Origin: Octopus vulgaris
Taxonomy: Eukaryota
DNA length: 64,000 bases
NCBI GenBank assembly: GCA_951406725.2
Contig: OX597819.1
Coordinates: 75,950,001-76,014,000 of the forward strand
Reading direction: 5' to 3'
Positions 9,100-57,973 of this stretch are shown piece after piece. The position numbers and the translations under genes were made by a program. Below the pieces are notes generated by a model. It saw nothing but the letters and a program-made list of their open reading frames with translations, was not told the DNA's origin and searched no databases. Within the stretch, counting starts at the first letter, position 1. Each line of letters starts with the position of its first letter.

Positions 9100-11721
9100 G
9101 CCTCCCTAACGCCATCACCCCAATACTTTTACTAAATATTGGGGGCCTGTTGCATCAAAATAGAAACAAAATTTCTTTCCTGAGAGATCTTACTGCATGC
9201 AATCAGGCCCTATGCATAGCACTTGTGGAAACTCACCTCAACCCTGATATAGAGGACGCAGAAGTACACATACCAAACTATGCCATACTGCGACGGACAG
9301 AAGGGAAAGGAGCCATGGTGGAGTTGCTGTATACATCCACGATGACCTCACACCCCAGGTCTTAATGACATACTCAAATTCGGTATGTGACACTTTAATT
9401 GTATACATAAGACAACATAATATAGTCATATGCAATACATATTGCCCACCGGATGCCCCAAATCACATAGGCAAGTTTGAAGATTGCCTCACAAGAATTA
9501 AAGAAATCCTCATGAATCTGGAACACCACGTGACCATATTTCTTATGGGTGATTTCAACTTCCCCAACGTCAAATGGCCCGAAGGTCACATACTCTCAGG
9601 AATGAATCATTGCAAGCAAGTACAGGTGGAGTCCCTGCTCAACCTCACCAATGTCTTATTCATGGAGCAAGTTGTACTCAAGCCAACTAGGGCGAATAAC
9701 ATTCTGGATCTCTGCTTCACGAACAATATGGACATCATTCATGATGTGAAAGTGACACTGACATCAGTTTCGGATCACAACATAATAGAGCTGTCTATGT
9801 TTGGGCCAAAAGTAACCAGAGACATACAGCCTAAAAGAAGCACCCGAAATCTCTCCAATCTGAACTTCCACAAAGCAGATTGGAAATCGATCCAAAAAGA
9901 GATCCTCAGAGAGGACTGGCTGGAATGTCTCTCCACACCAGACATTGACATGAAACTAGAATGTTTCATGTCTTCTGTGCAAGCCGTATGCCAGAAATAT
10001 GTCCCAGAGCACAAGGCCAAAACAAATAGGAGCAAGATTCCAAGAGACAGGAAGATCCTCATGAGACGTTGGACGAAGGTTGCAAATCGTCTCAACCAAC
10101 ATCCCAAAAGTAGCGAAACGTCCCGCCTAAAAACAACACTGATGGAGATCGAAAAAAGGCTGCAACAATCCTATGTGAAGGAGAAAGCAGACAAAGAAGC
10201 CTGGGTTATAAAAAACATTAAATCAAACCCAAAGGCCTTCTTTCATTACGCGAAAGAAACAGTCTCAGTGCACTACAAGATAGGACCCCTCCTCCAAAAG
10301 GATGGCTCCCTCACAGACAGTCCAACTATGATCAGTGAGATGCTGAATGACCAGTTCAAAAGTGTCTTTACCACTCCGTTGGAACACAGACAAGTGAACG
10401 AACCAGTGGACTTCTTTGCCGCCTCACCTATAACCAGCGAGGCGGTTACAATAGAATGTATTGACATTAGCGAAAAAGATGCCCTACTAGCCATAGATGA
10501 AGTGGACACAAACTCAGCTGCTGGTCCAGACGGTTTCCCAGCCATCCTCCTCAAAGCGTGTAAGAATACCCTGGCAAAACCCCTCAAGATTCTCTTCCAG
10601 AGCTTTCTTGCGAATGGCAAACTGCCAAGCAAGCTGAAGGAGGGAATAATATGCCCAATACATAAAGGGGGAAGTAGAGCAGATGCCAAAAACTATAGGC
10701 CTATCTTTCTGACTTCACACATCAGCAAAGTCATGGAACGGATAGTAAGAAACTAATCGCATTCCTTGAAGAAAATAACTTGCTGAGTGATACCCAGCAT
10801 GGTTTTCGACCAGGTAGGAGCTGCCTGAACCAGCTCTTACAGCATTATGACTGGGTGTTGAGGCAGTTACTCAACAAATCAAATGTGAACGTAATCTACC
10901 TTGATTTTGCAAAAGCTTTTGACAAGGTGGATCATGGTATGATATGCCACAAACTGCGTGACCTCGGCATAGCTGGAAAACTTGGAGTGTGGTTGCATGA
11001 CTTTCTGAAAGATAGGAGTCAGGCAGTAGTGGTTAATGGAGCCACCTCTGTGAACACACAAATAGCGAGCGGTGTTCCACAGGGCACTGCTCTTTATAGT
11101 GGCCCTCTCAGATATGCCCTCAAATGCCCGGATAGCCACTCTGGCCAGCTATGCAGACGATACGAAAGTCTCGCAGAAAATACAGAACCTCAGCGATGTT
11201 GCACACCTGCAGCAGGAGTTGGACTCAATCTACAGATGGGCTGAGGATAATAATATGCAGTTTAATGCTGAAAAATTCCAGGCCCTGCGCTACCAGCATC
11301 CAAAACTGAATATTAAACTTACAGGATACACTGGTCCACAGGGAATTTCAATCCCAGAGTCTAAGTCTGTGAGGGACCTGGGTATTGACATGAGTGATGA
11401 TACCTCTTTCCAAGTGCACATTACCAGGATGGCGACAAAGTGCAGACGACTGGCTGGGTGGATCCTAAGAACATTCAGAACCAGAGATAAGGAAACCATG
11501 ATGGTCCTCTGGCGGACATTCGTCCTCAGCCGCCTGGATTATTGCTCACAGCTATGGTCACCCACCAGTGTAAAATTAACAGCGGACCTTCAAACAATCC
11601 AGAGAAGATTCACAAATAAGATCGTCTTTGCAATAGCTCAGCTATTGGGAAAGGTTGAAACAGCTAAGACTCTACTCCTTGGTGAGAAGACGGGAGAGGT
11701 ATGCAGTAATATATGTCTGGA
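9100..11721 (+). pseudogene. LINE ORF2 (AP endonuclease + reverse transcriptase), frameshifted
   Basis: APE: ALVETHL, MGDFNFP, NILDLCFTN, SDHNII. RT: AGPDGFP, KNYRPI, QHGFRPGRSC, YLDFAKAFDKVDH, SGVPQGT, YADDTK, RDLGI, RLDYCSQLW. Confidence 0.95.
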
Positions 11722-11963
11722 GCATCAAAAGTCTTCCGTGGTGTGCGTCCTTTCAAATACAAAAACCGGATCACTGCTCGACACCCAACAGGCTCCATTT
11801 CATACTTGACTCAGTTCAAACACCTGTAAATCAGAAACCGCAATTAGTCCAGAGCTGTAATTTGCCACTTTATCTATAGAGATATAAATAATTGCACATG
11901 CAAAATTTCAGCTAGATCAAATAATTGCAAGTGGGTCAGAGCATTACTTATTGAACGTCCCTC

Positions 11964-13373: not shown

Positions 13374-13411
<38 letters not shown>

Positions 13412-37474: not shown

Positions 37475-38155
37475 TCTGATCTTAACTGATTGGAAGTGTT
37501 ATCATGTACATTGTTTTGTCTTGGTATAAAAGATGGGCTACAGCAAATATTCTGCTCAATCATGATGGGTTTATAATACTAATAATAATAATAATAATAA
37601 CAACAATAATAATAATAATACATACACACATACTTACATACATATATACATGCATACACACACACATATAAGATGATTGAATTAGCAGTTGCAATAACCA
37701 TCTAAGAGTTAAGAATATCCATTTTACTACCGGTAAAAATTAGCTGTGTTAAACCTGGGCATACATATGCAAGCATATTATGCTCATTGTATAAGGCAAT
37801 AACAAAAATAAACAAGATATTATCAGGAATCAAATTTAAATTCAGAAGAAAATGGAGAAGTTTTGATCAACAACATTTGACTACCTTCGATTATTATTTT
37901 TTAATACAAAACTTGATCCCATCTAACAGCTGTTTCTGCTTCCGTCGTCCCACAGCGCTTCCAAAGAAAATTCTGAGAAAAATACTCGTCATATTCTATA
38001 GCACATCCGATGAGGAACATCGAGCTTCATCAGAGTGAGGAAAATACATAAAATAATATAAAAGAAAAAGAGCCTCGAGACGAGGAATGATGGCTCAATT
38101 CATTTGAATCATACCCTTTTGACGTGTAACGCCTCAGGCCGTTCGATGATATATA

Positions 38156-38468
38156 TTACTCTTTTACTCTTTTACTTGTTTCACTCATTTGACTGCGGCC
38201 ATGCTGGAGCACCGCCTTTAATCGATGAACTCGACCCCAAGACTTATTCATTTGTAAGCCCAGTACTTATTCTATCGGTCTCTTTTGCCGAACCGCTAAG
38301 TAACGGGGACATAAACACACCAACATCGGTTGTCAAGCAATGCTAGGGGGAGAAACACAGACACACAAACACACACACGCATATATATATATATATATAT
38401 ACATATATACGACGGGCTTCTTTCAGTTTTCGTCTACCAAATCCACTCACAAGGCTAGCCACTCCTGC
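38156..38468 (-). mobile_element. SINE family A, internally deleted
   Basis: Near-identical to 3006-3431 but lacks most of the head. Confidence 0.88.
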
Positions 38469-38473
38469 ATATA

Positions 38474-38557
<84 letters not shown>

Positions 38558-38570
38558 TATATATATATAT

Positions 38571-39246
38571 CTAATGTATTACCATATCGGTCCGATATGG
38601 TAATAATGGAATTTTTAAGAAATTTCTGTCGACCTTTTTTCAAGTAACGTGCATATTGTGAAAAAATTATATGGTTAATGGACAATATGTCCAATTTTTC
38701 GGCATATTTGGCATTAGAAATTTTTTCGTTTGCCCTTATTTATTAATTGTTTATAAATTTAACCTTTAAAGGTATTTTTTAATATGCTGGTCATTGATAA
38801 AATTTTTTTCGAAAAGAATTTTTTTGAAAAAAAATTTATCCTACATTAGATATAAATTTAAGCGTTCACTTCCGGACTCTCTCACTCTGTGAGGGCCTCA
38901 GTTCAAATCGCATGTGTCTCGAATGGGCTGGAGTATTTCTATTTTGGATGTATTTGGGGTACTTAATTGTGCTCATGACTTAGAGTTTGCTTCTTCCATG
39001 GGTATGAGTAAGTATCTCATTTATTTCTTTTGCCACATGTATCACTGACGAAGGGAAGGCTGTTATAAGCTAACCCTGAAATCGGTCCGATATGGTAATA
39101 ATGAAATTTTTTAGAAATTTCTGTCGACCTTTTTTCGAGTAGCGTGCGTATTGTGAAAAAATTATATGTCCAATTTTTCGGCATATTTGTCATTAGAAAT
39201 TTTTTCGTTTTTGCCCTTATTTATTGCCCTTATTTATTTGCCCTTA

Positions 39247-39252
<6 letters not shown>
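38571..39252 (+). mobile_element. Retrozyme/Penelope-like non-coding element: ~495-nt monomer + partial repeat, 5' fold-back at the HHR cleavage site
   Basis: ATCGGTCCGATATGGTAATAATG... occurs at 38586 and 39081; 14-bp fold-back TATTACCATATCGG-T-CCGATATGGTAATA; (TA)n on both sides. Confidence 0.88.
39038..39094 (+). ncRNA. Minimal type I hammerhead ribozyme
   Basis: TGTATCA-CTGACGA-AGGG..CCCT-GAA-ATCGGT-C-CGATATG; canonical core; GUC site at 39087. Confidence 0.82.
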
Positions 39253-39296
<44 letters not shown>

Positions 39297-39300
<4 letters not shown>

Positions 39301-39975: not shown

Positions 39976-41080
39976 GATATATAATTTCTGTGTGTATTGA
40001 AATTGAATATTCCAGTATCGTTCTTGCCGAATGTTTGACATTAGTTTGCAATTTGAGGAATCTTTATGTGCCACGCCTTGTAGGATGAGCGCCTGCGCAG
40101 AGGACTTCCAACTTTAGTACGAAATAAACTGTGTAGTGTATCCCCAGATCATCACTCTTAGTTGAACATATCAATGTTCAGTTCCATTCACATTTTCTAC
40201 TAGAAATCATATTGTTTGATACTGCCTTCGTTAAATTACGACATTAATCTATAATAGTTTTGACTGAGCACCTACAGAAAGATCAGGTGTCATAGTGTTC
40301 CCTTACATTAATGAATCGGGTGTATTATGAACACACATTCTTCTGAAAGGAGACTTTGTTGAGGAAAGACAGAAACAGTTAGCACATTTCCGTTCGAAAT
40401 TGACGGAACATATTAAGAATGAGTAAGTATGTCATCTATATGTTAGCCGTTGTCCACCGTGCACATGAAGATTTAAGTTAATAAATATCAGCGCACATTA
40501 GCAAATAATTTGTTTGCTGAATTTATAAATAAGACTCACAAACGCTTTTTAGCTTCATGAACTTCTAGTAGTTTTGGCTAAAGAGACACACCGATATCGA
40601 AACAGCGGGTATCCGAACGTCCTCTTGCGCTAATGAATCAAGTGTACTATGATCTCACATTCGCCAGAAAGAAATTGTTCTCCGATAACAACATACCACA
40701 AATATTAGCATATTGCAGTTCGTATCTACCGAAACGTATTAAGAATAAAAATGCATGTTGCCGTTTTGATTCTCGCTGTTCAGAGACCTCACTCACGCGC
40801 GAATTTTTCACTCACTACCTAGCTACCTAATTCTCTTTGTCTTTATATATACGCATTCGATTACACACATAGGTACACATATAATTGCTTGGGTGCACAT
40901 ACATTCTTCACTTATGCTTACGCCTTCCCCCTATCTTTCTTAATATATATATATCGCAATGTGTATGTATGTGAATGTATGTATGCATGCATTTATGTAT
41001 GGATGTTTGTATGTATGTACATATGTATGTATTATGAATGCATGCATGTATGTATGTTTGCATATATGTCTGTCTGTCTG

Positions 41081-55316: not shown

Positions 55317-57973
55317 CTATCGAGAAAGAGACAGAGGAAGAGAGACAGAGAGAGAGAGAGATAGATAAGATAATGATGCAAATAGACATGCTTGGGCGCT
55401 TGATATACAAAATATACATACATGTAAATATATGTATAGAGAAACAAAGCTGAAAATCATGTATAAGTATGTAGATACGATATATTTGCAGAACAGCTTT
55501 ACATAGAATACAAAAGATACGGAAAACTAAGTGGAGAGGGCATGACATTTCGGATCCGACAGCTGTATCGAGGGTCTCGGAATTATGTAACAGTAATGAT
55601 GTTAGATGGATTATGCAAAGATTCAAGGGTATGCAACTAGTAGTGGATGCATATAAATATTACCGTAAATCCGGCCTTCAGGGTGTCGGAGAAATTATAA
55701 TGGAAAACGATGTTAAAGAGACAAAATTATCCTGGCTATAATATATTTAGAATTAAATTGTTTTGAGACGGTAGGCTTGAATTGAGGGATATTTCACTGC
55801 TATTTATAGCTGGTCTAGCGCTTATGAGAGGGCTGGTGACTCCGATGTTTGATCGTAGAAATCATTATAATTGTAGGACTGAATAACTGGAGTGATGAGA
55901 TATATATTTCACAGTTTCGCATTATCCCATTTTCTCAACGAAATGAGCTTGCTAATAGCTTTTATAGAGATTTATACTGTACTAACTATATTTCCAAACA
56001 TTGCCTTCATGATAAGTTTCATAAAACGAACGTTATAAATTTTACACAATTCACGGAATATGCTTAATATCCATTCATCTATATAGACTCTATTACTAAA
56101 CGTTTGGTTCTTTGTTAGTTTTAATCATTTCAGCCATCTTAATGGGTTTTTTCTCATCTTTTGTTTTGTTTTAAATTCACTTGAATCGATTGTCATAGAA
56201 AGATTGCTTTTGGAACAACTCTTTCATTTCAAACTCCCCAAGCCATTAAATATATATATATATATACAAAATGTAATAAAATGTAGTAAAACAAAACAAA
56301 TTTTACAATATTGGTAACATTATTTATATGTGATACTAGTTGCTCTGTTTGCGAAAATTCAAACGAATTTAGTTGTACCAAACAATCTCTTCTTTGTTGT
56401 TTACAAATTATCTGCATGGTTTATTTTCCTACGTTCTTCAATCGCCGGTTCTTTGAGACAATATATTTATAACTTCATTAAGTTTTCTATAGCAATAGCT
56501 TTGTGAGCGAAATAAAGAAATATTTTAAAATAAAATTTGATACCTATATTTGTTGTTGTTGGTCTGGTTGTTGTTGTTGTTATTGCTGTTGTTAAGTGTG
56601 GAAAATGTCTTTTCTTTTTTATGACATACAGTGATATTTGAGAGCAATATTGCTGCTATTTCTTTCAAGCTAAGAGGTAGCTGCCTATTATTGACATACT
56701 GGTTAAATACTAAATTAGCAATCACGAGTTTTTATTTTGCAATCCTGACGATTTTCTAATCTAAGATTCGTCACCTGCATTTCAAAGAAATCAGGTTCGC
56801 CGGAGCTTTTCCAAGTATTGTGAAATGAAACAATTATTCAAAAGCATATAAATGGGGGAAGAGGCTTTTCCATCTGACTTGGAATTGGATATTTTTGATC
56901 AAATGTTAGTCTTATGATGTTGGTAAAGTCTAGAAAGAAACCTATATTACATTCTCAGCAATACACATGTAGACAGCTTCTTTGAATCATAAGTAGAAAG
57001 AGAATGACTTTAAGAGAGCTCGTCAAGATCGGTAAGTAAGTCAGAAGAGAAGTAAATAAGTAAGCGAGCTTCTCCAAAAGCAAAAGACTTTCTGAATTTG
57101 CTTATATAAATCTATGGTTTCCACTTGATAACTTTTTAGTAAAGGAAATCTCTTATTTTTTTCTCTGGCAACCTATTATGCACTGTTGTCACTGAATAAC
57201 ATTTTACTCAAACTTTTCTGGGGCTCCTTTATATATACATGAATATAATCATAAGGCAGCAAATCGCCAATTAATAAGGACAGGTAAGTTTCTACAACAT
57301 TACGGCATTGAATTAAATGATATCAGGTTAAGCGACAAGATAATGCAGCATGTCTCTGGGTATATACTCTCTTATTTACAAGATCAGCAGAACAGTACTG
57401 GATTCAGCAAAAGTAAGTACTATTTAATGAATGCAGAAGTTGCACGGGAGCTGCCTCTGGTTTCGTGTCCAGATAGCTCAGTAATCAGACGTGCGCACAT
57501 GGCGTACCATGCACGATCTGTTAATTATTCAAGGTTAAACGACGTAGATACTTCATGAGGAAGCGCAAGAAAAACATTGGGAGTCCGAAATAAAAGAACG
57601 AGAAGAAATCGTCTACGTATTTTGTAAAATTACTATAATCTGATCAGCGGATTAAGCACATAGGTTAACGAACTTAGCATTGGTTTTAGTCGATTACTCC
57701 CACTAAACATTTAAAGATTAAACAGCAACATAAACATTCTTCTTCTTGTAGAGGGTTACAAGAATATAAACTTTATTACCATTTCCCCTTAACGTTTGTT
57801 TGGTCGTTTTTTCCTCTCGGATTTCTTAATGGAGTAGCCTCATCGTTTGAGCTTGAACGATTGCCAGCCCGAGTCCGGTACGCTGTACACGTCAGTCTGA
57901 TTACTGTATTATCCGAGTATGAAATTTGAAGAGTCAACTCAGGTATAACAACTATATTAATTACTTGATATAA

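Follow-up and report, generated by a model that had tools for sequence, protein, structure and literature searches.

A fold-back junction at a predicted hammerhead cut site in a high-copy non-coding element of Octopus vulgaris

Introduction

Does an insertion whose 5′ end lies at a ribozyme's cut site record the cleavage of the RNA from which it was copied? The question is raised by a locus of Octopus vulgaris (assembly GCA_951406725.2, contig OX597819.1), where the initial annotation had described an element beginning at its own hammerhead cleavage site, preceded by a reverse complement of its first bases, and had read the arrangement as genomic evidence of past in vivo cleavage.

The function of the hammerheads carried by Penelope-like elements is described as open (PMC8557442, PMC11167929). 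Retrozymes, their dimer-type ribozymes and a circle model have been set out (PMC7229834, PMC4209133), and a 2026 preprint (10.64898/2026.07.22.740005) presents retrozymes as non-autonomous Penelope-like elements. In Penelope-like elements themselves, partial tandems, inverted 5′ copies and a (TA)n bias (PMC8557442) have been reported, as have inverted pLTRs with an optional tail and 5′ palindromes of 18 and 38 bp that were read as self-priming (PMC3846280). One Penelope-like protein has been found to cut both strands of AT-rich DNA, to extend them and to start at two internal sites; in vitro its template is mostly unprocessed RNA, and no RNA-seq reads end at the cut (PMC11167929). Penelope-like families are active in Octopus vulgaris according to PMC13282606, the main text of which makes no mention of hammerhead or retrozyme.

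Anatomy of the element

All coordinates are positions in the window, i.e. the whole 64-kb stretch of DNA that was analysed. The element lies between two (TA)n tracts, and its parts are the following.

38469–38570, no strand: left (TA)n tract, 51 copies; target sequence, in which a target-site duplication is not distinguishable
38566–38578, minus strand: 13-nt inverted piece, exact reverse complement of 38842–38854; its outer end merges with the (TA)n tract
38577–38590, minus strand: fold-back arm, perfect reverse complement of 38592–38605; TA at 38577–38578 is common to it and the inverted piece
38586–38592, plus strand: seven bases, from stem III/loop 3 and GTC, that match the ribozyme on the 5′ side of the scissile bond
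38593–39087, plus strand: cut-to-cut unit of 495 nt, 32% GC, no recognizable ORF, predicted to be strongly self-paired as a circle
38796–38840, no strand: AT-rich internal hairpin of 45 nt (self-match and fold), a candidate stall site
39030–39098, plus strand: type I hammerhead of the dimer type, predicted to cut after 39087
39088–39252, plus strand: partial second unit of about 165 nt with a 16-nt deletion, ending near the family's first 3′-end zone
39252–39297, no strand: right (TA)n tract, 23 copies

The direct repeat at 495-nt spacing (38586–38673 against 39081–39168, 94% identity; 137 matches, 6 mismatches, one 16-nt and one 2-nt gap over the repeated part as a whole) supports the earlier proposal that one cut-to-cut unit and a partial repeat, about 1.3 units in all, were inserted. 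In the second repeat, 16 nt are missing between short direct repeats at 39149–39150 (compare 38669–38684), and these are present in other copies. At the 3′ end of the element (39210–39252), a motif of 13–14 nt stands three times head-to-tail, whereas a single copy is found inside the unit at 38731–38743; the triplication may reflect slippage when reverse transcription starts. Folded as a circle, the unit is predicted to be more stable than 60 of 60 shuffles (z −4.1).

Two other identities were considered and rejected: a coding remnant, on account of the stop codons present in all six frames of the unit, and a plant LTR retrozyme, since the ribozyme is of type I rather than type III and the repeats form a partial tandem. 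Within the window, none of the 13 ORFs matches a GIY-YIG domain and the element has no further copy outside the locus. Other mobile sequences in the neighbourhood are a broken LINE (9365–11809) with an APE-type endonuclease (PF14529) and a reverse transcriptase (PF00078), which is not a Penelope-like partner, a remnant of a mariner-type transposase (PF01359; 12437–13099) and, just upstream of the target tract (38150–38410), what we take to be a SINE-like repeat ending in (CA)n(TA)n. The element is a copy of a high-copy non-coding hammerhead repeat, with no reverse transcriptase or GIY-YIG ORF.

The family and its two 3′-end zones

Part of the stretch is contained in 20 of the 24 sequencing runs listed, under four organism labels. 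Contigs of four of these runs (X1, X3, X5 and X10; three labels) were aligned at 80% likeness to 38561–39090, a reference chosen so that the repeated part occurs once. The survey consists of short contigs only; X1, covered to about 80%, may be the source sample itself, and since X10 is taken for RNA only by guess, its contigs are not counted as evidence of expression. Pile-ups of ends were not used, as contigs cannot show ends.

The number of contigs aligned (5,997 in X1, 3,275 in X3, 3,170 in X5 and 426 in X10, over 29–30 of the 30 bins) shows that the family is present in high copy. All four runs contain the joint closing the 495-nt unit (1, 1, 3 and 1 contigs), a 244-nt contig bridges the middle of the unit, and about 11 of 530 places in the copy under study carry a letter other than that of the majority. 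Exact-pattern scans of metagenome contigs, viral contigs and prokaryote genomes returned no loci.

Among the 24 of 775 loose ends listed, three rows pass into (TA)n at 38755 (23, 21 and 21 contigs), and three more, opening at 38815 (25, 35 and 30 contigs), follow the unit to about 38850–38858 before becoming TA-rich; one contig passes from 38854 into TA repeats. The family has, in all three larger runs, two 3′-end zones (38755 and near 38850) about 100 nt apart.

The hammerhead ribozyme

The ribozyme consists of the core CTGACGA (39045–39051), stem II (39052–39077), GAAA (39078–39081) and GTC (39085–39087), with a stem I in which 39030–39043 pairs with 39089–39098. Stem II is long, with predicted pair probabilities of 0.97–1.0, and the base of stem I bears an A2.1-C1.1 mismatch (39044 and 39088). 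Stem III is a single base pair closed by a self-complementary loop, and its six bases are predicted to pair with a second copy, two G-U pairs included.

The assignment was made by the core motif, folding and variant letters rather than by Rfam, which gave no match in the window at the gathering score and, at E up to 10, ten weak matches with no hammerhead family among them. A scan of both strands of the window for core and stem II found two matches, of which only that at 39045 has stem I and GTC; the second, a loose core match at 56745, was set aside for want of both. None of 200 shuffles of the 81-nt hammerhead stretch folds as well as the stretch itself (z −3.2). As to variant letters, T replaces C at 39060 in 32–50% of the depth and the loose-end consensus of other copies has A at 39069, an apparent C-G to T-A change of the 39060/39069 pair that is read as compensatory and supports the ribozyme fold. 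A second subfamily, represented by 16 contigs in X1 and 1 in X10, has G at position 2.1 of that consensus, and two ribozyme subfamilies seem, from these letters, to coexist in all runs compared. The A at 39044 was also considered as a private CpG decay; the position is missing from the variant rows listed (40 of 55), which suggests that A may be common in the subfamily of this copy.

In the monomeric state the ribozyme is predicted to misfold, its core pairing with its own loop 3 at a probability of 0.95–0.98. Cutting of the 5′ site copy in cis by the single core was examined and rejected, the predicted cost of the required structure relative to the minimum being 31 kcal/mol when the fold-back arm is included and 20 when it is left out. 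A transcript of the locus is predicted to yield no cut-to-cut monomers, because the 5′ site would be buried in a hairpin and the single core paired with loop 3.

A splice-donor-like hexamer (39008–39013) was also noted 17 nt upstream of stem I, within a long hairpin (38940–39029), with a 26-nt likeness to the surrounding stretch at 40419–40444. In the Penelope element of Drosophila virilis an intron adjoins the ribozyme (PMC4209133).

The 5′ junction

The inverted arms 38577–38590 and 38592–38605 pair perfectly over 14 bp around T38591. Perfect arms of at least 12 bp with at least two G/C occur at five places in the 64 kb, the other four being microsatellite-based; perfect palindromes of 18–36 bp at 13374, 17752 and 55243 are made of (AC)n, (TA)n or (GT)n tracts. 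The hairpin makes a cDNA snap-back at the 5′ end likely, as had been suggested.

Where the fold-back sits relative to the cut is another matter. The direct part had been thought to start at the cut, and the reverse complement of its first 14 nt to stand immediately upstream. The perfect 14-bp hairpin is there; with the base next to the cut taken as the start, 13 nt remain for the inverted arm and 3 nt for the loop, and an arm of 14 nt takes in C17 of the 5′ cleavage product. Identity with the ribozyme already begins 7 nt 5′ of the scissile bond, GTC included (38586–38592); four of these bases are common to the inverted arm, and the loop bases GTC are not accounted for by the fold-back. The retention of GTC and of ribozyme identity 5′ of the bond implies that the cDNA crossed an intact bond, uncleaved or re-ligated, before folding back. 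The same scissile bond is also intact inside the insert (39087/39088), and the template was therefore uncut or re-ligated there.

Folding agrees with a stop beyond the bond. The cut site bears its own 5-bp palindrome (the seven bases 38586–38592 with 38593–38596), as a result of which a cDNA that has gone 6–7 nt past the bond, ending at 38586, possesses a ready hairpin primer of 4–5 bp, whereas one ending at the cut has no 3′-terminal hairpin. The palindrome is one of 12 centres with arms of at least 4 bp among the 495 possible stop points and ranks sixth by energy, five being stronger. Given a unit of 495 nt, a junction would fall as close as 7 nt to the cut in about 1.6% of cases if positions are uniform and in about 1 in 12 among palindrome centres, or less when these are weighted by energy. 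These figures leave room for a ribozyme-linked bias of junction position.

It is against this background that an explanation by cleavage has to be judged, namely that the RNA was cleaved at this GUC and that a cDNA reaching the new 5′ end added a few untemplated bases and snapped back. In its favour, the 13-nt arm, with its 3-nt loop, starts precisely on the base that follows the cut; R2 is reported to snap back once its cDNA is full length (PMC11371274), and ribozyme cuts set 5′ junctions in R2 (PMC3774820) and Perere-3 (PMC8501958). However, the three loop bases equal the ribozyme's own GTC, for which a cDNA from a cut end has no template and which untemplated addition would produce by chance about once in 64 to once in 100, and such a cDNA lacks the terminal hairpin; the predicted misfolding of the monomer also weighs against it. 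Nor do the ends and joints listed for other copies show the preference for this GUC that the initial annotation had anticipated: with limited power, 5′ ends are not clustered at the cut, none falling at 38590–38593 among the 24 of 775 ends listed, and none of the seven strand-changing joints among the 15 of 35 joints listed is at the cut, these lying at seven different places with one contig per run each. Among the same 24 ends, three rows stop before 38586 (11, 13 and 11 contigs in X1, X3 and X5), their consensus being ribozyme stem II. Mean depth on 38561–38578 (90.5, 35.7, 4.8 and 0 in X1, X3, X5 and X10) is far below that of the next bin (70,843, 57,213, 14,889 and 855), depth being no copy count; long fold-backs at the cut site are rare in the family on that account. 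We regard a snap-back from a cleaved end as very unlikely, and the claim that the junction is genomic evidence of cleavage in vivo is not supported.

Cleavage may have taken place and left no trace. A monomer could have been ligated into a circle, or the reverse transcriptase could have jumped to the 3′ end of another monomer, and copying could have gone round 1.3 times, with a pause at the ligation site or the ribozyme fold biasing the fold-back. The 1.3 units with their junction at the ligation site would suit this, as would the predicted stability of the circle; the 4% difference between the repeats would fit later decay of identical copies, given the departures of this copy from the majority letter, and retrozyme circles and this very model are published (PMC7229834, PMC4209133). 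On the other side stand a 1-bp stem III, which requires a dimer, the A2.1-C1.1 mismatch, cleavage in vitro of only one of nine Xenopus dimers (10.64898/2026.07.22.740005) and the fact that uncleaved tandem RNA yields the same DNA. We consider this course of events possible yet doubtful. Since the letters would be identical whether the template was uncleaved tandem RNA or a ligated circle, or the reverse transcriptase jumped between templates, the junction cannot report cleavage, which is neither demonstrated nor excluded by the locus.

A second inverted piece at the left end

Between the (TA)n tract and the hairpin there are six bases which, with their neighbours (38566–38578), are the exact reverse complement of 38842–38854. 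When random 6-mers were put in this place, 200,000 times for each of two base compositions, about 0.11% gave a match of at least 13 nt (P about 0.001), the observation being a single 13-nt match, about 5 nt of it TA-like, at one locus. The two inverted pieces share two bases (TA, 38577–38578). The inner end of the 13-nt piece lies 2 nt from the base of the hairpin 38796–38840 and its outer end at the family's second 3′-end zone; the two ends of the insertion coincide with the two zones, since the direct one falls near unit position 38748 and the inverted one at 38850–38854. We interpret the piece as a short cDNA for which the left target strand provided the primer.

The composite structure bears on the possibility that the hairpin is an assembly or sequencing fold-back beside a long (TA)n tract. 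No contig listed for the four runs carries the locus's own junction with its flank, as an artefact would have it; a simple read fold-back, however, would not account for a left end composed of two inverted pieces that reaches a family 3′ end, and we attach hardly any probability to this explanation.

The main rival for the left end is the collapse of a longer structure: the end may once have been a long inverted copy with arms of about 263 bp, reaching 38854, from which 236 nt of the left arm were later deleted at the TA microhomology. The outer piece ends at a family 3′ end and the inner one at the hairpin centre, and both are inverted the same way; tailed inverted pLTRs have been described, as have microhomology deletions (PMC3846280), and this copy contains the 16-nt microhomology deletion noted above. 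By contrast, the halt of the outer piece 2 nt from the base of a 45-nt hairpin would rather suit a stall of synthesis. A deletion of this kind remains a minority view, tentatively held, and leaves the conclusion on cleavage unchanged.

A proposed origin

The reading that we prefer, at a probability of roughly 0.65, is that the locus is a non-autonomous Penelope-like element, i.e. an animal non-LTR retrozyme, whose insertion was primed by both strands of the target, the two resulting cDNAs being joined through a snap-back. A Penelope-type reverse transcriptase/endonuclease acting in trans would have nicked the (TA)n tract and primed from both strands. The right-hand cDNA would have begun about 160 nt downstream of the ribozyme, read through the intact scissile bond, copied the whole unit, passed the bond a second time by 6–7 nt and stalled before stem II, then folded back on the cut-spanning palindrome and extended 9 nt on itself. 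The left-hand cDNA would have begun at the second start zone (38850–38854), stopped after about 13 nt at the base of the internal hairpin and joined the snap-back end via the TA microhomology. As template, an uncleaved tandem transcript would serve as well as a ligated circle, and the DNA does not discriminate between the two. Each part of this origin has a published precedent; the locus is taken as a new family member and not as a new mechanism.

A more specific proposal is that the hammerhead places the inverted junctions of Penelope-type insertions with no need for cleavage. Loop 3 of a dimer-type ribozyme, being self-complementary, would act together with the first part of stem I as a built-in DNA fold-back primer, while the reverse transcriptase would pause at the ligation site or before stem II, so that the scissile site is where copies taken from circles snap back. 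We judge this unlikely. If it were true, the ribozyme motif would gain a role in closing the 5′ junction, and the locus with its second inverted piece would record two-strand priming at two fixed start sites.

Comparison with known systems

With the animal non-LTR retrozymes (PMC7229834; 10.64898/2026.07.22.740005) the element shares a non-coding tandem unit of low GC content (below 50%) with one type I hammerhead, a predicted self-paired circle and a proposed Penelope-like origin; the axolotl HHR_Amex1 likewise has a 1-bp stem III with a self-complementary tetraloop. The unit of 495 nt is above the 150–450 bp of PMC7229834 and inside the 51–972 bp of 10.64898/2026.07.22.740005. It differs in the long stem II, in the mismatch at 2.1-1.1, in a circle and a cut that are only predicted, and in the single complete hammerhead core of the locus, as against the two consecutive complete units by which the 2026 preprint defines an 'active' copy.

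The endonuclease-bearing Penelope-like elements (PMC3846280, PMC8557442, PMC11167929) are similar in the partial tandem, the inverted 5′ piece with a palindromic centre, the two alternative 3′ ends, the hammerhead upstream of the start of reverse transcription that is read through intact, and the (TA)n target. Unlike them, the present element has no reverse transcriptase/GIY-YIG ORF, its 3′-end zones are about 100 nt apart rather than 30–40, and its inverted part is only 25 nt, composite, and centred on the scissile site.

A ribozyme site at the 5′ junction is also found in R2, with an HDV-like ribozyme (PMC3774820), and in Perere-3, with a twister (PMC8501958), and R2 cDNA can prime itself before joining (PMC11371274). 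In those elements the ribozyme-defined junction recurs at the cut in many copies, whereas here the element sequence does not stop at the scissile bond, the 7 nt 5′ of it being kept, and the ends and joints listed show no recurrence.

Implications

Had the junction been fixed at the cut, it would have offered in vivo evidence of a rare kind on the role of the hammerhead, and the locus does not supply this; what it holds fits the in vitro result that uncut RNA serves as template (PMC11167929). The feature is real and its class ordinary, the best added detail being the second inverted piece at a family start zone. The locus points to a high-copy retrozyme family under at least three related species labels. 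In the main texts searched, with most subscription papers and all supplements outside view, no paper was found that deals with this family or with fold-backs whose centre is a hammerhead cut site. The locus represents a clear natural example of an insertion in which both target strands would have been primed at the family's two start zones.
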